Below, piece by piece: positions 30,494-59,758 of a stretch of 64,000 bases of DNA; position 1 is the stretch's first letter, and every line of letters begins with the position of its first letter. Made by a program: the position numbers and the translations under genes. The notes beneath the pieces were generated by a model. The model saw only the letters and a list, made by a program, of their open reading frames with translations, did not search any database and was not told the DNA's origin. This stretch comes from Nitrosopumilus sp. GTDB taxonomy: Archaea > Thermoproteota > Nitrososphaeria > Nitrososphaerales > Nitrosopumilaceae. Location of the stretch: contig OZ242186.1 of assembly GCA_965205675.1 (NCBI GenBank), positions 896,001 to 960,000 of the forward strand. The letters run 5' to 3'.

Positions 30494-31356
30494 CCAAACA
30501 TAACGTCTTTCCCTCAATCTGAAGAAGATCAATATTTTGGGTCTCGAAGATTACACAGAACCTGGTCTTCGGATTCTGTTGTTGTATCCCAAAATCAGTT
30601 CGTCCCTTATTTGACATCGTATTCTTCTCCTGTCTGCTCATCAATAACTCTTGTTCCTTTCCCTGGCATCTTTCTTGCATATGCCTTTACAGGGGTCTCA
30701 AGATTATCCCAGTCAAGTGACATGTGTGGCTTTATGTGGTTGTACCAGTGGACCAGCTCATCAATGGTGCCAAACCATTTCTGCTTTCTCTGAATCTCGC
30801 CGTGAAATCTTTCGAGCTTGCCATTGGTTTGAGGATGGTTCACTCTTGCCATGATGTGTTTTATTCCAAGTCTAACCAGTTCTTGCTCAAACTGTGATGC
30901 TCCTTTTCTCTTGTATTCTGATTGGTTTGCATAAAATTGGGAGCCATGATCAGTTAGAATTGATGCAGGCCTACCGTGCTTTGCAATTGCCTCATGTAAT
31001 ACTACAAGTGCGTTATCTGTTGTTGCCTCTGCAAACACTCCATGAGAAACGATAAACCTTGATGCGTCATCCTGGTAACACAGAAACCATCTGCCATCGT
31101 CTAACTGCTTCCAGTCAGTATGCCACATGGAGTTTGAATATGTCCTTTCATATCTAACCCACTTTCGCCTTCTCCTCTTCTTTGGCTGATCTTCTGCCAA
31201 CCCCTCATCTCTCATAATTTTGTGTATGGTATTGTGAGGTATGTGTGTTCCAGTGGTATCAATTATTTTCTCCAGGAATACTGCAGAACACCTGAACTTT
31301 TCAAATGTAGACTGGACAGTCTGTACCATCTGCTCTGTAATTATCCATGTGAATTG

Positions 31357-31372
31357 TTTTTATACATTTCCT
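31357..31372 (-). promoter_or_regulatory. Outward-facing BRE/TATA at right end of IS110-B
   Basis: Minus strand reads aggaaatg-tataaaaa, about 15 nt inside the element end. Confidence 0.55.
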
Positions 31373-31379
31373 CTCTTTC

Positions 31380-31550
31380 CATACATCAGGGCATGGCTTT
31401 CGCTAGAGAATGGTTTCAATCAAAAGATGGCAGACATGTATCCATACGAGACTATTCTCTCAATGCTATCTTCATCCTAGTTAGGATTGTTCGCAGTTAT
31501 TAGACGAGGCCTTGTCCCTCAATAATTACAACGCGACTTGCAGTCCTAAC
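31380..31550 (-). ncRNA. Bridge/seek-type guide RNA of IS110-B (ends approximate)
   Basis: Stems tcgc/gcga, gagg/cctc, gaga/tctc; loop tgtaattat is the reverse complement of B's right flank ataattaca; atggata and atag match B's ends. Confidence 0.75.
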
Positions 31551-32660
31551 TATAATTTTGTACAAATTCTCTCCTCTCCTTTAACATCCAATAAATCACC
31601 CTCAGGATCTTTGATGCACCAGCTACTGCAGCTTTGGATGATCCTCTTTTCTTTTTAATGCGATTGTAAAATTTTGTAATGTCACTATCCTTGGCATGAA
31701 TTGCATGAGTGTGTATGCATTCTGTTAGAACCCATCTCAATGTCATGCTTCCCCTTTTTGTTATTCTGCCATGGTGTATTGTATCTGCAGAGTTTCTAAC
31801 TGATGGTACAACTCCTGCATATGCACACAGTTTGTGAGAATCATTGAATCTCTCAATATCTGCAATCTCTGATGCAATGACAAGCGAAGAATAATGCCCA
31901 ATTCCCGGAATCGAGTTTATCAAAATTGCATCAGGATTAACTTTTACAGCAGCATACACTTTGGAATTAATCTCTGCAATCTGTAAATTAAGGTGGCTGA
32001 TTTGTTGCAAGAATCCGTCTATTCTGTAATCTCCTAGTGCCTTGAGTCTTCTGTTGTATGTTTCAGTGAATGTAACTCCTGGAATCCTGATTCCTTCCTG
32101 TAACAATATTCCATGAACTGAATTCTTGACAGATGTTCTCCATTGGATTAGTTTTTTCCTATATCTTACAAGCTGTCTTTGTTGTACAATCTTTTTGTCT
32201 GGAACATAACATGTGGCAATGTATCCTCCTCGTAAAAGATCTGCCAATATCTTGGCATCAATCTTGTCTGTTTTCTTTTTTGATGTAGCAATTGCCTTTG
32301 TCAAATATGGGTTTGAGAGTGTGACGTTTTTGTATCCCAAAGTATCTGTGAGAAATCGATACGTGTCATACCAGACTGATGAGGATTCCATTACAATATT
32401 TGCAGAAATTGGTATTTTTGCAAAATGCTTTTTTATGGATTCATGCGTGTTATCCACTTTGTCATTTTGTAATACTTTGCCTGCATCATCCATTTATTAC
32501 TTGAAGAAACTTCTTGTGCAGGTCAATGCCCACAAACATGCCTTTCTTTGGATTTTTTCTAATCTGTTTGTTTGTAATCTTTTTTGGAGCCGAGTATTTA
32601 CGAACCTTGGAACTAGATTCATTTTTTATGCTATCTGATTTCCTTGCTTTCTTATTCACA

Positions 32661-33994
32661 TATCCATGTGAATCCCTTTTAACTATTGTCGGTATTTTTG
32701 CCATATTAATTACAGCTTACGCTAATACACTCATACTTTCAATCACAGATGAAACCAGACACATATCCATTCGGGGTTCTCCCCCAGTACCATCTTCATC
32801 CATTTATTAGGTGAAACCGCGGTTATAGTTTCGAGGTATTATGCATCCTCAATGTGAAAACGCGGCCAAACTCCTAACTGTAATGTTTTACAAATTATTG
32901 ATGACATTGAATAAATTCTCTCCTCTCCTTTAACATCCAATATATGACACGCAATAACTTTGATGCAGCAGCAACTGCTGCCTTTGAGGTCCCCCTCTTT
33001 TTCTTAATGCGATTATAAAATTTTGTAATGTCGCTATCTGGTGCGTATCTAACATGTGCATGAATTGCCTCCACTAGCAACCATCTTAGCATGGTGCTTC
33101 CTCTCTTTGTAATTCTTCCGTGATGTATTGTATCTGCAGAATTTCTCACCGATGGAACAATCCCTGCATATGCACATAACTTGTGAGAATTTGAAAATCT
33201 GCTAATCTCTGCAATTTCTGAGAATATGCTCAATGCAGTGTATGGTCCAACTCCAGGTATTGATGTCAAAATACACACATCAGAATTATCATTTACCATG
33301 CGACGTATCATGGAATCTATCTTTGCAACCTCCTTTTTGTGAAATTTTATGCTTTGTAGGTACGAATCTATTCTATAACTCTCCAATTTTCCAAGTGCAC
33401 GTATGTGTTCTGAGGAAAATGGTGTTGCTTTGATATGGATTCCCTCCTGTAGTGTAATACCATGTATGGAATTCTTCATCTTTACAATGATGCGCACAAT
33501 CTTGTGTCGATGTCTTACAAGCTGTCTGTATTGCACAATTGTGTGATCTGGCACAAATGATTCTGCAATGTATCCCTCCTCGTAGCAAATTTGCAAGATG
33601 GTACGCATCAATTTTATCAGTCTTTTTGAGTGATGATGCTATTATCTTTGTGTTGTATGGATTAGATAGTATAACATCAAGATGTAATTTGTCTGTCATG
33701 TGTCTATAAAGGCCATACCAGACAGATGATGACTCTAAAACATATTTTGCGTTCTTTGGAATTTTGGATGTAATTTTGCTAATAGCAGAAAAATCACTGG
33801 AAATCTTTTTGTTAAATAATAATTTGCCAATCTCATCTACTGCTGCCACCTGTACAGAGTTCTTGTGAACATCCAATCCTACAAACATCAAATATTTTTT
33901 TTCAGGAAGGGTAGTGTGTTTGTTTGCATTTCTTACTTTCTTGATACGAATGCAAGTACCATCTAATTTCCTAGCTGATTTTGGCACATATGGT
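32661..33994 (-). mobile_element. IS110/IS1111-type element A, copy 1 (1334 bp)
   Basis: VGLDVH, VLESS, KTDKIDA, SVRNSA; near-identical to 57076-58409; transposase 32895-33987 with a frameshift. Confidence 0.95.
32705..32885 (-). ncRNA. Bridge/seek-type guide RNA of IS110-A, copy 1 (ends approximate)
   Basis: Reverse complement of the copy-2 RNA at 58185-58365. Confidence 0.75.
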
Positions 33995-34155
33995 TATAGT
34001 TATTCCCTTTGGCCTTCCAGGCTTGCCTAGAATCGGAATTGCACCAGTACGGCGATACCGTGAGTAGAGTTTCTGCACCCACCGAACAGATATCTTCATG
34101 GATGAGGCTACGTCTGCGTTCTTGGCACCATCCTCTTTTGACTTGATTATCCAGG

Positions 34156-35545
34156 GTAACTGTCTAGAGTTTTGAAGTAAAATCTCCAAGATATTCTAAA
34201 GAATAATCATGAAAGTTTAATCCTCGTAATCTGCATGTCTCCTTTATACTCATCAGTATCTTATGAGAATCAGCACCATGAATGGTTCTATGACCGTTTG
34301 TAATTTTACGAATTATCACATTTGGTCTGATTGCCCTCTCTGCTGTGTTATTGTGTGAATCAGTTCCAGTAATTAGGAATGTAAAAAGCATTTTTCTCTC
34401 ACGTTTCAATCTTTTTACAAACCTGATACAGTTTTTCTCTGTGTATTTTTTTGATATGATGTGATTAATTCTCCTTTCAAGATTCTTTTTTGCATGGATT
34501 CTTTCTGATTCTGATTTTATTTTTGCCACACCATGAGAGTCATAAATTATTTTCTTGAGATTCTTGGCAAATGGTGCAAATTCTGGTCCGGGATTCTTGT
34601 GATTAATGGTATCATTAACCTCTCTGAGATAATGGATGTGACATTTCTGGTGAGTGCTTCCAACATGGTTCCATGCAGGGTACGAATCACTTGTAATGTT
34701 GCCATCATATCCCTTGAGAATTCTCTTGGGAACATCCATTGAACGTGATTTGTCAATCTCGTAAATTACAGTCCATTTACTCACAAATGCCCACAACCAG
34801 TGGTTCTGGCCATCTACCCTCCAACTTGTCTCATCACCATGTATGTTTAGATCTTCTTTTAACTCCACAATCATTGTATCATATCTGCTCCCAAATGCTT
34901 TTGATACTATTGATACTGCATGATTAATTGCAGATTCTGTAATGTGCAGTGAGAAGAGCATCTGCAAAAGATGAGATATTTTACCATACGATAATCCGAT
35001 AGTTTTTAGTGATGTGATTAGCACCATGAGCCTAATTCCAAACCTTTCATTTGACAGTACAGTGTGAATGTTACCCGAGATTTGTTTTTTGCAGTTTGTG
35101 CAGTATCGTCTAACTATCGTATATTTTGTCACAACTGCTTTTGCAGGAATGATGTCTTCTACTATTCTGGTGTATGAATCAGTTGGTTCTGAGAGTGATT
35201 TGCCACATGTGTTGCACTCTTTTTGGTCAACTGTAATGGCATCATCAATGTGTGCCCGTCTGCTTCTGCTTTTTCTAGGATGTCTTGATGTTTTCTTCTT
35301 TTTTGCAGTTTCAGTCTTGTTTGGTTTTGCTTTGATATTTCTTGCAACAAGTGTAGACACTGTTTGTTTTAGTTCTGCAATTTCTCTGTGTAACTGACGG
35401 TTTTCTTGCTCCAACGAGTGACATCTGTTGCGATAATATTCCAGCTCATCATATACTGACAATTGTATATTGTAATTTGTCACTGATCAGAAAAGATATA
35501 GATAAAAAATATTAAAGAAAGTACTTCAAAACTCTAGACAGTTAC
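34156..35545 (-). mobile_element. IS66-family single-ORF element; transposase 34164-35483 intact
   Basis: 24-bp perfect TIR gtaactgtctagagttttgaagta, 8-bp TSD tatccagg; HGDETSW, HQKCHIH, NNTAERAIRP. Confidence 0.95.
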
Positions 35546-53909: not shown

Positions 53910-54056
53910 TTTTAAAAAAACACAAAAAAAGTATCAGAAGGTATTCCAAATTGGGACACACCACACTATGTCTGGACGAGTCAACAAATAAAGTAGCACC
54001 CAACATAAAGCGCAGATGGTATCTTGCAGAAAATAACATCACCACATCAATTAATT
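53910..54056 (+). pseudogene. IS630 transposase fragment
   Basis: Closely similar to 59207-59352 (acactatgtctggaYgagtcaacaaataaagtagcaccc). Confidence 0.85.
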
Positions 54057-55137
54057 AGACCTCTTGCGCAATTAGACATATTTTACCATATTACACAAAT
54101 TCCTTCACAGCAAGATCCAAAGCTAAGAACAACCTAACACATTTCATGTTAACATACAAGCAACTCTCAAAAAAGCCAAAATCCCTTCTCTCTTTTACTG
54201 GAGTGACTAGGCAACAGTTTGATGTGATTCTAAAGGATGTCAGAAAGAATCACCGTATAGAAGAAAAGAAGAGACTATCCAAAGCAAAGAGAAAAAGAAG
54301 TATCGGGGCTGGGCGAAAGTTTGATTTGAGTCTTGAAGACCAGCTTGTAATGTTGTTTGTTTACTATCGGATGTACCTGACATGTGAATTGACAGGATGT
54401 CTGTTTGGATTAGACCAGAGCAACGTCTACAGAAACATCAGATATTTAGAGCCTGCAGTAAGAAAAACAGTTCCTATTCCTGCAAAACTATACTCTGATT
54501 CTAAAAAGATAAATGATGTACAGCAACTCCAACTGTTCTTTCCTGAATTAATTGCATTGACTGATGGTACTGAACAACCAATCCCAAGACCCCAGAACAA
54601 AAAGAAAAGAAAGACTCACTATTCAGGCAAAAAGAAAAAACACACAATAAAAAACCAAATCACCATAAACCAGAAAGGTGAGATAATCCACAAACCCCCA
54701 CATTCTCCAGGTAAAAAACATGATTATGCCATACTGAAAATCAGACATCCAGAACTGCCCGAAGATGTGATGATATTTTATGACCTTGGGTATTTGGGAG
54801 TGGAAAAAGATTTCCCAGAACAGACAAGCATTCTACCATACAAGAAAAAGAAAGGAAAAAAACTGACCATACATCAAAAGGAATGGAACAAGATGCAGTC
54901 AAGAATCCGAATAAAAGTAGAACATATTATCTCTCAAATCAAAAAGTTTAGGATTAATTCTGAGACATTTAGGAATAGATTGTGCAGGTATGATGCAATA
55001 AGTGACATCGTATGTGGAATTGTAAATTTCAAGACAAGATGGAAGCAAGAGTTTGTTGTGATTCCATAAGATTAGAAATTATTTGAAATTAAATTCAATG
55101 AAAGATAAGATTTTGTTTGTAATTACGCAAGAGGTCT
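54057..55137 (+). mobile_element. IS5-family (ISL2/DDE_4-like) element; transposase 54146-55069 intact
   Basis: TIRs agacctcttgcgcaatta / taattacgcaagaggtct; DGTEQPIPRP, YSGKKKKHT, DLGYLG, RIKVEHII. Confidence 0.92.
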
Positions 55138-55672: not shown

Positions 55673-56984
55673 CAGTAGATGGGAAAGTAACTCAAGTTAC
55701 ACATTCTAGAAAATAATTATTTTTGTTATTTCTAAAGTAATGAATAATTATCTTTACAAAGAAATATTTGAGAATTTCAATTGATATTATTGGTTTGTGA
55801 TTTTGTACATTAGTTTCTTCTGAGATAATCAAATTAGCAATTATCCATGCATTGTACAAAATCAATGAATAGTAGAAATACAACAATCTTATGGATTGGT
55901 TTGAACTGGTGGTTTTTGGTCTGAACCTTCCCACACATGCATAGCCTGTTTCAATCCCCCAACGTTTCTTGTAATCAGTTGGAATGTTTTGTATGTTATA
56001 TGATATTTCTTTTGGTGAAATATTTGTTGCAAACACAACATACTGATCAATAATATCTGATTTTCTTCTTGCATTTTTGTTTGGTAGAATAACTAGATTA
56101 AATGATTCTACATGTCCTGATGATGATTTTATTGTGTATGGCGAGATTGACTTTCTATCTCCATTAACGTATTGTACAATTGCATCTTTGATTCGAGAAT
56201 TCTTTTTTGCAGGCATTAGAAATTTCAGATTCTTTTGTTTTATTTCTGAAATTGTTCCAGCTGTGAAAAACTCCCTATCCACTAGCAATAGTTTAATCTT
56301 GATTCCATTATTGATGCCATCAGAGAGTAATTTACGCACAAAATCGGCATTTGATTTGTTGTCATACAAAGGATAACAACCTAATTGAGCCCTGATTCTT
56401 TTTTCAACGCACTGCATGGTGCAGTAACTCTCAAAATGAGTAGTACTGTTTTTAGATTTTGATTTTATTAAAGAATGGTTTGGCAATTTGTCATATCTTG
56501 GGATTAGATGTTTGTCAATTGCTACAGTAACTGGTTGTTCCAATACTCCCAGTTCTCGTAATTTTGATACTGTACTATCTAGTGACTGATGTAATTGAAT
56601 TTGCATTGTTTTTTGTGATATTTTTGATATGATTTTTCTCAACCATGAAGAGAAGCATTATCTGATTCCATCGCCAATCTCTTTAATCCAGATTCAGAAT
56701 ATGAATTTCCCAAACACAATGACATGACAGAATTGTGTGCATCTGCATTGTGGAACCGTGAGTTATTTTTACTAGAGCATGGAAACAACAAGATATTGTA
56801 CATTATTTTAGTGATAATCTCAAATGCTTTAGATAGTATCACGCCTTGGTGTGTCATGGTATCAAATGAAGTACAATGCATATTTGATGGAGTGACATAC
56901 TTCCATCAAGCTTTTTCTATCTGAATAGATTGATTGAATAATTGATAGTTTTTGATCTAAATTGAGTTACTTTCCCATCTACTG
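55673..56984 (-). mobile_element. ISH3/IS4-like element, transposase 55692-56881 frameshifted near 56640
   Basis: 23-bp perfect TIR cagtagatgggaaagtaactcaa; VAID, LLVDREF, YKKRWGIETGY; no TSD seen. Confidence 0.85.
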
Positions 56985-57033
56985 GATATGGTTTTTTGCC
57001 AAGAGTAGTTTTTGATTTTGTGCATTTTTGATA

Positions 57034-57081
57034 CTTGCACTTGTACTTGCACTTGTACTTGCACTTGTAACCATAACCATA
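57034..57081 (+). repeat. Hexamer-phased array (cttgca cttgta)x3 (accata)x2 at IS110 left junction
   Basis: Read directly from sequence. Confidence 0.95.
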
Positions 57082-58409
57082 TGTGCCAAAATCAGCTAGG
57101 AAATTAGATGGTACTTGCATTCGTATCAAGAAAGTAAGAAATGCAAACAAACACACTACCCTTCCTGAAAAAAAATATTTGATGTTTGTAGGATTGGATG
57201 TTCACAAGAACTCTGTACAGGTGGCAGCAGTAGATGAGATTGGCAAATTATTATTTAACAAAAAGATTTCCAGTGATTTTTCTGCTATTAGCAAAATTAC
57301 ATCCAAAATTCCAAAGAACGCAAAATATGTTTTAGAGTCATCATCTGTCTGGTATGGCCTTTATAGACACATGACAGACAAATTACATCTTGATGTTATA
57401 CTATCTAATCCATACAACACAAAGATAATAGCATCATCACTCAAAAAGACTGATAAAATTGATGCGTACCATCTTGCAAATTTGCTACGAGGAGGGATAC
57501 ATTGCAGAATCATTTGTGCCAGATCACACAATTGTGCAATACAGACAGCTTGTAAGACATCGACACAAGATTGTGCGCATCATTGTAAAGATGAAGAATT
57601 CCATACATGGTATTACACTACAGGAGGGAATCCATATCAAAGCAACACCATTTTCCTCAGAACACATACGTGCACTTGGAAAATTGGAGAGTTATAGAAT
57701 AGATTCGTACCTACAAAGCATAAAATTTCACAAAAAGGAGGTTGCAAAAATAGATTCCATGATACGTCGCATGGTAAATGATAATCCTGATGTGTGTATT
57801 TTGACATCAATACCTGGAGTTGGACCATACACTGCATTGAGCATATTCTCAGAAATTGCAGAGATTAGTAGATTTTCAAATTCTCACAAGTTATGTGCAT
57901 ATGCAGGGATTGTTCCATCGGTGAGAAATTCTGCAGATACAATACATCACGGAAGAATTACAAAGAGAGGAAGCACCATGCTAAGATGGTTGCTAGTGGA
58001 GGCAATTCATGCACATGTTAGATACGCACCAGATAGCGACATTACAAAATTTTATAATCGCATTAAGAAAAAGAGAGGGACCTCAAAGGCAGCAGTTGCT
58101 GCTGCATCAAAGTTATTGCGTGTCATATATTGGATGCTAAAAGAGAGGAGAGAATTTATTCAATGTCATCAATAATTTGTAAAACATTACAGTTAGGAGT
58201 TTGGCCGCGTTTTCACATTGAGGATGCATAATACCTCGAAACTATAACCGCGGTTTCACCTAATAAATGGATGAAGATGGTACTGGGGGAGAACCCCGAA
58301 TGGATATGTGTCTGGTTTCATCTGTGATTGAAAGTATGAGTGTATTAGCGTAAGCTGTAATTAATATGGCAAAAATACCGACAATAGTTAAAAGGGATTC
58401 ACATGGATA
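57076..58409 (+). mobile_element. IS110/IS1111-type element A, copy 2 (1334 bp)
   Basis: Starts accata-tgtgcc, ends ttcacatggata; transposase 57083-58175 with the same frameshift as copy 1. Confidence 0.95.
58185..58365 (+). ncRNA. Bridge/seek-type guide RNA of IS110-A, copy 2 (ends approximate)
   Basis: Loop 1: ccgcg[ttcacat]gagg..cctc[aactata]cgcgg; loop 2: gatgaa[atggt]gggg..cccc[atggata]..ttcatc. Confidence 0.78.
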
Positions 58410-58612
58410 TGTGAATAAACAACGAAATTTAGATGGTACTGCTGATTCTATAGTTTCTAAAAGATACATCTCCAAGAAAAAGCCAAAGAAAATCATTAGA
58501 GCTAGAAAGACAAAACCCATGACCTATGTCGGAATTGATTTGCACAAAGAATTCTTACAGGTCGAAACAATGGATGATAAAGGACATACATTATTCAATG
58601 AAAAAATTACAA
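58410..58612 (+). pseudogene. 5' part of a third IS110 (element C), truncated by IS630
   Basis: Starts tgtgaata like B; YVGIDLHKEFLQV..MDDKG. Confidence 0.85.
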
Positions 58613-59758
58613 TAGTTTAGGCATATAAATTTTGAACGAATTATCAACTATTTTAACCCAAAAGATCTAGATCATAGTTTATACTTACAGAATCATGTCA
58701 AAACAAACTAAAGCATTAATGGTATCTTCAGGAAGCCATTTCATGAAAGGAACAAGCATTAATTTTTTAAGAAAAACATGCAAGAATGAAAAAAATGCAA
58801 AAGCAAAGATAAGATTAAAGGCTGCAATACTAAGAAAACAAGATATTCCATATTCTGTGATATGTGCCAGTTTGGATGTCATACCATCAACTCTGTCCTA
58901 CTGGCTAAATCGAATGGATAAAGAGGGAATAACTGCATCACACCGTAAGGAATATTCTGGCTCTAGATGTTTCTTAAATAAAAAACAACTAGTGTCATTA
59001 AGAGATGATCTAATTTCAGGTCCAGAAAAGTTTGGATTCAATCAATTCATGTGGAGTACAAGAATGGTAATTACACATGTGAATAAAAAATACAACACGC
59101 TATACTCTGCAAGAGGAATGCGTGAATTGCTGCACAGAATCGGATTCTCATCTAAAAAACCAAGACAGACTCATCACAAATCAGCCTCAAAAGAGGAACA
59201 AACCCGTTTTAAAAAAACGCAAAAAGGAGTATCAAAAAATATTCCAAATTGGGATACACCACACTATGTCTGGATGAGTCAACAAATAAAGTAGCACCCA
59301 ACATAAAGCGCAGATGGTATCTTGCAGGCAATAACATTACCACACCAATTAATTACACTCGAGAAAAATTTCAATCATTTGGTGCATTGGGCAATAACGG
59401 TGTATTTTTTTGCAGGTTCTATGATAAATCAAACACAGACTCATTTCTTGATTTTTTAGAATCACTGCAAAAACAATTTGGTAAGAAATTGTTACTGTTT
59501 GCAGATAATGCATCATACCACAAAAGTCTCAGAGTAAAAGAATTTCTCAAAGCACCAAAAAATAAAGTAATAATTAGATATTTTCCTGCATACACACCAG
59601 AACTCAATCCAATTGAGATACAGTGGAGAGAAGAGAAAAATGGTAATGCCAATACATTCTTTGCAAATGGAACTGAAATGAAAAAACACATGCAGAAGAG
59701 ACTAGATAATGGAGCGGTTCGAGTTGTTAAAGTATTCAAATATTTAATGCCTTAACTA
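58613..59758 (+). mobile_element. IS630-family element; ORFs 58695-59294 and 59249-59755 joined by probable -1 frameshift
   Basis: Imperfect TIR tagtttaggcat / atgccttaacta; ttttaaaaaaac slippery run at about 59207-59218; LDES, DNASYH, PAYTPELNPIE. Confidence 0.9.

Follow-up and report, generated by a model that had tools for sequence, protein, structure and literature searches.

An IS1111-type insertion sequence of Nitrosopumilus nests in the left ends of its siblings and is probably a poorer, but not forbidden, target for itself

We analysed a window of 64,000 nucleotides, comprising bases 896001–960000 of the 2.01-Mb single-contig genome of a Nitrosopumilus species (G000). It contains two full copies of an insertion sequence (IS), here termed element A, one lying inside the left end of an element B and the other inside the left end of an element C. 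To judge from their sequences, A, B, and C are sibling elements of the IS1111 type, within the IS110 family of RNA-guided DEDD transposases. We consider it likely that A is an RNA-guided IS that nests in the left ends of its siblings, and that mismatches in its own left end make it a poorer substrate for itself without rendering it immune.

In the mechanism that we propose, the 3' non-coding region of each of the three elements would encode a seekRNA (bridge RNA) with two internal loops. The target loop of A (UUUUCACAU, AACUAUAAC) would be programmed for AAC[T/C]ATA-TGTGAATA in a sibling left end, and A would insert within ATA at positions 3–5 of that end. The insertion would part the first five bases of the sibling, which its donor loop would read, from its sub-terminal repeat. 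The homologous left end of A retains the site with CC for AA at positions 6–7 of the predicted top-strand duplex, which would make it a poorer self-substrate. Occasional insertion of A into A, followed by collapse of the tandem, may account for extra ACCATA units upstream of some A copies.

Ends and copies of the nested elements

The transposase gene of the A copy termed A2 (57182–58175, + strand) encodes the Pfam domains DEDD_Tnp_IS110 (PF01548, E = 5.3e-14) and Transposase_20 (PF02371, E = 4.7e-23), and the B transposase contains the same two (E = 3.8e-19 and 3.5e-21, respectively). An intact C protein scores 249 bits against the NCBIfam model NF033542, "IS110 family RNA-guided transposase" (cut-off 140), and matches the IS621 transposase from the PDB over its full length (E = 2.3e-12). 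The motif G--P----S(t)G reads GIVPSVRNSA in the translations, with SA instead of SG or TG; a TA variant is occasionally found in the IS1111 group, according to a passage of PMC11187229. The non-coding flanks of A show an IS1111-like asymmetry, with 234 nucleotides 3' of the gene (58176–58409) versus 106 nucleotides 5' of it (57076–57181). The sub-terminal inverted repeats of B and C, ATGTGAAT/ATTCACAT, have only 8 bp, and that of A is cut down to the 5 bp of ATGTG/CACAT; the IS1111 norm given in the same source, as far as its description extends, is 11–13 bp, with extensions of about 7 bp on the left and 3 bp on the right. The 7/3 geometry fits if the crossover comes after the first A of the ATAA zone described below.

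Two host sequences are present as paralogues in different states (empty, filled by B only, and filled by A plus B), and these were used to fix the element ends. The empty site, found twice, reads CACACAAATCCAATAATTACAATTGA (CCAATAATTACAA). The solo-B site reads CCAATAA-CTATATGTGAATAAG...TTCACATGG-ATAATTACAA, with its right flank as ATAATTACAATTG, and the A+B site reads CCAATAACTATA-ACCATATGTGCC...CACATGGATA-TGTGAATAAG. From this comparison, B starts with CTATATGTGAATAAG and ends with TTCACATGG, with a four-base ATAA zone common to donor and target. By the same reasoning, C starts with CCATATGTGAATAAAC (solo C left junctions read GTAA-CCATATGTGAATAAAC) and A starts with (A)CCATATGTGCC. Comparison of paralogous sites with and without an insert shows that insertion is specific in site and orientation and makes no true target duplication: the empty site has a single instance of the bases shared with the element, ATAA for B and ATA for A. 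Two other placements of the ends, with ACCATA at the start of A as captured flank or with TA directly before TGTG as the core, were dismissed by the empty sites.

Copy A2 is 1334 bp long and occupies 57076–58409 (+), as located by blastn and by comparison of solo-B with A+B sites; because ATA is shared at both sides, 57073–58406 is an equally valid placement. Its left end is ACCATATGTGCC over 57076–57087 and ACCATATGTGCCAAA over 57076–57090, and its right end is GGGATTCACATGGATA (58395–58409). Upstream lie the first five bases of a C-type left end, CCATA (57071–57075, +), behind the flank zone GTAA (57067–57070) and severed by A from the C-type remainder, TGTGAATAAAC..., at 58410–58620 (+). 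The match of this remainder to four other C copies in blastn stops at about 58612–58620, and contigs of sequencing runs over the region have a joint at 58612. The second full copy in the window, A1 (32661–33994, − strand), likewise parts the B left end CTATA (33995–33999, −) from the rest of B (31345–32660, −), which reads TGTGAATAAG... from 32660 on the − strand and is followed by the overlap zone ATAA (31344–31341) and the right flank TTACAG. The original prediction on this DNA had B and C begin with ata-tgtgAA. That sequence is correct, but it describes the part of B and C downstream of A; the true starts, CTATA and CCATA, lie five bases earlier. The insertion of A is therefore inside the sibling left end, within ATA at positions 3–5, and the first five bases of the sibling sit upstream of A at 57071–57075 (C) and 33999–33995 (B).

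The same arrangement recurs throughout the genome. In blastn searches, G000 contains eight full-length copies of A with at least 98.8% identity, ten of B, and, for C, four left ends besides the one in the window (three full-length copies and one cut short); there are also fragments. A metagenome-assembled genome (MAG), G041, carries the same element A; G145 shares its contig numbering and coordinates and was counted with it as one assembly. In nine of nine cases the right end of A in G000 is directly followed by TGTGAATAA, which is what remains of a left end of B type (eight cases) or C type (one case), and all three B-type remainders in the MAG have an A-like right end just before them. The A-type left ends (17 in G000 and 12 in the MAG) read TGTGCC, with one old variant, TGTACC, in G000. 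The 7-mer TTCACAT is not rare on its own (21 matches in the window, 24.2 expected); the end pattern is a property of repeated elements and not of chance.

A predicted guide RNA and its target

The 234 nucleotides between the stop codon and the right end of A hold TTCACAT twice, once as the right sub-terminal inverted repeat (58398–58404, +), which B and C share while having other targets, and once within 58210–58218. The right flanks of B and C are ATTACA and TGTT, despite the same sub-terminal repeat, and therefore this repeat cannot set the target of A. The original prediction had named TTCACAT as the guide, and its observations on the ends hold: TGTGCC at the left end of A, TGTGAA in B and C, and TTCACAT at the right end of A are read directly, and the reverse complement of TTCACAT is ATGTGAA. 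Its seven nucleotides do pair fully with B and C and have two mismatches (CC) to A, but the guide is better placed in the copy at 58210–58218, in the loop of a putative RNA.

This RNA, a predicted seekRNA or bridge RNA with a target loop and a donor loop, spans 58191–58323 (+) in a consensus fold of ten variants. The fold has 23 pairs, seven with compensatory changes, and two internal loops that are each closed by a stem and a hairpin. In an alignment of 15 distinct non-coding variants from G000, the MAG, and a third genome (G015), the scaffold is conserved and the loop strands are variable. A scan of 31000–34200, which includes the RNA of copy A1, against Rfam by E-value gave only chance matches to eukaryotic long non-coding RNA and small nucleolar RNA families, far below gathering scores.

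The 5' side of the target loop carries the predicted top-strand guide UUUUCACAU (58210–58218, +), assigned by its pairing to the B or C left end, and the 3' side carries the predicted bottom-strand guide AACUAUAAC (58240–58248, +), assigned by its match to the left product. The latter is identical to the left product AACTATAAC at A1 (34001–33993) and matches eight of nine bases at A2 (57069–57077). Together, the A guides specify AAC[T/C]ATA-TGTGAATA, a site composed of the final two bases of the flank and the 13 bases with which a B or C left end starts. On these sequence matches, the guide of A is the TTCACAT copy at 58210–58218 in the predicted target loop, partnered by AACUAUAAC at 58240–58248.

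Comparable relations hold for the siblings. In B, both loop strands (the complement of ATAATTACAA, and TCTAATAAC) find their match in the empty site CCAATAATTACAA; the two matches, TCTAATAA(C) and ATAATTACAA, have ATAA in common there, and in the RNA the top-strand match lies 5' of the bottom-strand match. When the 5' loop strand was complemented and compared with right junctions for six loop types, its longest match was 6–8.9 nucleotides at the junction of its own element and 2–6 nucleotides in non-cognate pairs. The donor loop of A (58276–58312, +) matches the left-end start CCAT with its 5' side, GAUGGUACU, and the right end CATGGATA with its 3' side, AAUGGAUA. Among variants, this loop covaries with both ends: AAUGGAUA is found with CACATGG and AAUAGAUA with CACATAG, while UGGUA is found with CCAT and UAGCA with CTAT. 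The UGUG that follows AUGGAUA in the donor loop was rejected as a handshake guide, as the consensus fold puts it in the closing stem. The element boundaries, the guide–target matches, and their covariation are thus directly established; from the sequence we infer that the A RNA is made and used.

Possible insertion of A into its own left end

The targets of A read AACTATA TGTGAA in B and AACCATA TGTGAA in C. Its own left end contains a pseudo-target, AACCATA TGTGCC (57075–57087, +), which has the left-side mismatch of C plus the two C's at 57086–57087. The top-strand guide UUUUCACAU pairs with the B/C left end ATGTGAATA at eight of nine positions, seven of them contiguous, and with A's own ATGTGCCAA at seven of nine, five of them contiguous; the estimated energies of the RNA/RNA duplexes are −6.5 kcal/mol and −3.4 kcal/mol, respectively.

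Relatives in other genomes extend this comparison. A first draw of 41 genomes had, besides G000, matches to A only in G015 and G018 (67–76% identity), and among 151 genomes of the genus, seven matched A, G000 included. The A-like element of one of them (G157, 88% identity) shares the left end TGTGCC; it is inserted in a TGTGAATAAAG left end, with a CTATA stub preceding it. Its guide, UAUUCACAU, matches ATGTGAATA at nine of nine positions, so the duplex is probably at least nine nucleotides long, with the two C's inside it at positions 6–7. A decayed A-like fragment in G155 has GTGCC after a two-base gap. All other lineages seen (B, C, a B-like element, and the D type of G015) have TGTGAA. The D type has the left end nearest to that of A and the right flank CAATTTT, and thus does not target left ends. 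A metagenome scan with the A left-end pattern gave two matches (L025 and L026), which were dropped because they had neither element flanks nor downstream sequence.

As stated in part of PMC11208160, IS621 has a strong preference for perfectly matched targets and accepts two mismatches less readily than one; most of its off-targets carry one or two. Reduced but non-zero self-insertion is therefore expected, and by analogy the mismatches would lower insertion of A into its own end. No A right end joined to TGTGCC was found at the 29 A left ends of G000 and the MAG, with one mismatch allowed. A one-mismatch match at genome 1845515–1845530 was rejected as ordinary protease-like coding sequence and not an IS. 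Contigs of runs X1, X2, X3, and X6 over 56900–58700 likewise contain no A–A junction, although rare forms are lost in contigs. The missing tandems that the original prediction had proposed to look for are weak evidence, because near-identical 1.3-kb tandems should collapse; a passage of 10.1101/2025.10.25.684509 describes reversion of IS110 tandem repeats under transposase induction.

Several observations weigh against our reading or limit it. An extra ACCATA stands directly upstream of 5 of the 29 A left ends (3 of 17 from G000, 2 of 12 from the MAG); if A inserted at CCATA^TGTGCC and the tandem then collapsed, exactly this unit would remain. Self-insertion therefore seems to occur and self/non-self discrimination, as originally claimed, is not absolute. 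A occupies 11 of 19 B-type left ends, which have a perfect left-side match (8/16 in G000 and 3/3 in the MAG), and only 1 of 11 C-type left ends, which have one left-side mismatch and no CC (1/5 and 0/6). The scar rate is not below this C-type occupancy, and specific protection by CC is therefore not demonstrated. The occupancy counts are not independent, as A+B recurs three times in an rve-type host gene, and hybrid elements (see below) may move as units. In all eight full-length A copies of G000 the transposase frame is split by an extra G (GGG for GG, 57494–57496). The single-sequence fold of 58191–58320 is unremarkable (−34.2 kcal/mol, z = −0.8), and no joint of an A right end to an A left end, as in a circle, is present in the contigs of the same four runs over 56900–58700, although contigs drop rare forms.

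We infer that the ACCATA scars derive from insertion of A into A, and that the two-base difference in its left end probably lowers such insertion without preventing it. We therefore regard self-avoidance as plausible but no more than partial, and selection for it as unproven: the CC change arose once, so that selection cannot be demonstrated.

A full version of the original prediction would hold that selection fixed CC as a mark separating self from non-self, and that A consequently never nests in itself. This is conceivable, though we lean against it. TGTGCC occurs in every A-lineage left end, including that of the 88% relative, and GTGCC in the G155 fragment; four other lineages keep TGTGAA, in agreement with the right end TTCACA, and the nearest left-end relative of A, the D type, has TGTGAA and another target. 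The mismatches fall inside the nine-nucleotide duplex, and no A–A junctions were found. Against selection stand the single evolutionary event, which has no replicate, and the scars. Beyond TGTG, moreover, the left ends differ at many positions across lineages, so that two changed bases are unremarkable, and tandems revert or collapse anyway, as reported in part of 10.1101/2025.10.25.684509.

The opposite explanation, that CC is drift in a weakly constrained left end and that A–A nests are lost by homologous recombination or through the recombinase, seems to us possible to a similar, limited degree. The scars show that A-type ends get used, C-type occupancy is no higher than the scar rate, and A proliferated with a 5-bp sub-terminal repeat, so the outer repeat bases are dispensable. 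Against such drift stand the conservation of AA in four non-A lineages, the retention of CC between A variants that are just 88% identical and differ in the next stretch of the left end, and the mismatch intolerance known for IS621, as far as PMC11208160 covers it.

If the extra ACCATA units arose by replication slippage at ATA-ACC-ATA and are not scars, self-avoidance could be complete. We regard this as rather unlikely. ATA microhomology does flank the unit, and scar status is discordant with guide type in hybrids (L013/L019, L015/L017), which would fit easy gain or loss. However, the unit is exactly that left by insertion at CCATA^TGTGCC and collapse, and it is found at five loci with different flanks in two genomes. 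In addition, TGTGAA follows none of five ACCATAACCATATGTG genome sites, a weak comparison, as the C context has only two nucleotides of microhomology. Finally, the idea that the sub-terminal repeat at 58398–58404 is itself the guide can practically be set aside: its complementarity to the B/C left end is trivial, because each of these two siblings has ends that are inverted repeats of one another, B and C with the same repeat (ATTCACAT) insert at ATAATTACA and ATATGTT sites, and only A-type RNAs hold TTCACAT in the target loop.

Hybrids, neighbouring elements, and known systems

The split frame of A is not shared by all copies. Seven MAG elements with enough sequence have an open A frame of 365 residues. 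Contigs of runs X1 and X2 have the GG form throughout, and those of X3 have both forms, with about one fifth of the depth lacking the extra G. Open frames are found in two of ten B copies and in all three C copies examined, so that A in this genome may depend on the protein of a sibling. Either A spread after the breakage by means of such a protein, or the frame is restored by slippage. In eight of the ten B copies, an extra A (ATAAAT) splits the frame after GIDLHKKFLQV; the other two, both solo copies, are open over 372 residues. In A+B nests, an ATG inside the right end of A opens a frame that runs into B (for example, 32486–32704, −).

A recurrent hybrid combines the B stub CTATA and the left end and gene of A, to about position 1088, with an RNA and right end resembling those of B. 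Both G000 and the MAG carry it, with four different target guides (genome 755689–754378, locus L055; L013, L015, L017, and L019). Three of the hybrid guides have a matching right flank in some copy, and the flank of one copy fits the guide of another. The hybrid junction is visible in runs X1–X3, with a loose end at window position 58157. This structure would be expected from a nested A that recombined with its host through homology, and it looks like a case of guide modules exchanged in nature. In addition, A elements of the MAG (L016, 7111–7331; L022, 7450–7670) combine the A target loop with a C-like donor loop and the C-like right end CACATAG, indicating that target and donor loops are exchanged as separate modules. 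At genome 1873910–1873871, 40 bases of the A left end behind a CTATA stub are followed by a different sequence with an open frame of 361 residues; compared with A, B, and C, this frame gave no match reaching 80% identity over 100 bases. The element may represent a further lineage of recombinants.

The window is rich in other IS genes (34167–35483, −; 54146–55069, +; 58695–59755, +). The A1/B nest is adjoined by an IS66-family transposase and splits an rve-type (integrase core) transposase gene of another IS into 30610–31340 and 33974–34189 (−). This gene with the same insertion recurs in the genome three times on the left side and twice on the right. The A+B pair at genome 996445–999105 has the rve-type gene as its left flank and a different host sequence (paralogue Y) as its right flank, which points to recombination of two B copies as the source of a rearrangement. 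Close to A2, a 12-base unit, CTTGCACTTGTA, is repeated about three times at 57028–57069, directly upstream of the C stub, and an IS630-like pair (helix–turn–helix plus DDE_3, frameshifted) begins near 58612–58620, where the C match to other copies stops. A stretch of 151 nucleotides at 59208–59358 is repeated at 53910–54060, just upstream of the reading frame at 54146–55069.

Among known systems, A resembles the IS1111 elements ISEc11, ISKpn4, ISPst6, and ISPa11, which, in the part of PMC11187229 that treats their seekRNAs, have a DEDD transposase, a long 3' non-coding region, and sub-terminal inverted repeats. Their seekRNAs also share with those predicted for A and B the order of a top-strand and then a bottom-strand match, which overlap in the target. 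The same account describes natural retargeting by replacement of the guide stretches, in ISEc11 versus ISXne4. The present elements differ from those covered there in their archaeal host and their shorter repeats (8 bp, or 5 bp in A, compared with the usual 11–13 bp). A differs further in targeting the left end of siblings of the same family, so that its own end carries a near-copy of the target. The bridge RNA of IS621, as described in portions of PMC11208160 and PMC11208158, likewise has a target and a donor loop that each read both strands, core bases common to donor and target, and poor tolerance of mismatches. Unlike A, IS621 belongs to the IS110 group, has its RNA in the left end with the guides in the opposite order, uses the core CT, and targets repetitive extragenic palindromic sequences. 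The protein similarity is distant (E = 2.3e-12).

Insertion into the ends of other mobile elements has a parallel. IS4321 and IS5075 are reportedly IS1111 elements that insert site-specifically into the repeats of Tn21-family transposons, as A does into the ends of B and C. Their targets belong to unrelated Tn3-family transposons and pose no problem of self-targeting, whereas here predator and prey are siblings with homologous ends. In Tn7, Tn3, and Mu, target immunity relies on proteins and operates over a distance. The avoidance of A would be alike in outcome only: it would consist of two guide mismatches at one site, of consequence solely because A aims at an end that its family conserves, and A has a single gene and encodes no immunity protein.

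For IS110 elements, a passage of 10.64898/2026.08.14.744561 states that target immunity is absent and perhaps dispensable, as insertion splits the target into hybrid junctions. The case of A differs, because its target is a left end conserved in the family, of which the inserted element brings a near-copy. Our literature search, largely at title level, found no published description of an IS110 or IS1111 element that targets the ends of sibling IS or carries a mismatch to itself.

RNA-guided recombinases of the IS110 and IS1111 groups are under development for genome editing, while their natural target logic is still being mapped. The genome studied here is a compact natural experiment in this respect, combining three sibling families and their recombinants with paralogous sites that contain no element, one, or two. 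From it the element ends can be set with single-base precision, and the guide-to-flank comparison yields six target-loop types, plus two more guides among the hybrids. It is tempting, but speculative, to see the A lineage as a dedicated hyperparasite of sibling RNA-guided IS that evolved end mismatches as a self/non-self mark, in a logic like that by which CRISPR arrays escape their own guides, and whose nesting and homologous recombination swapped guide modules to give the hybrid family, in which the left end and gene of A are joined to an RNA and right end like those of B and at least four target guides occur. An element aimed at the ends of its siblings raises the question of self-avoidance, which 10.64898/2026.08.14.744561, in the passage cited above, treats as moot for IS110. 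Should the two-base difference protect A, self-avoidance would here be encoded by the guide in a minimal form, and the hybrid family suggests that nesting is a route of guide-module exchange in nature.

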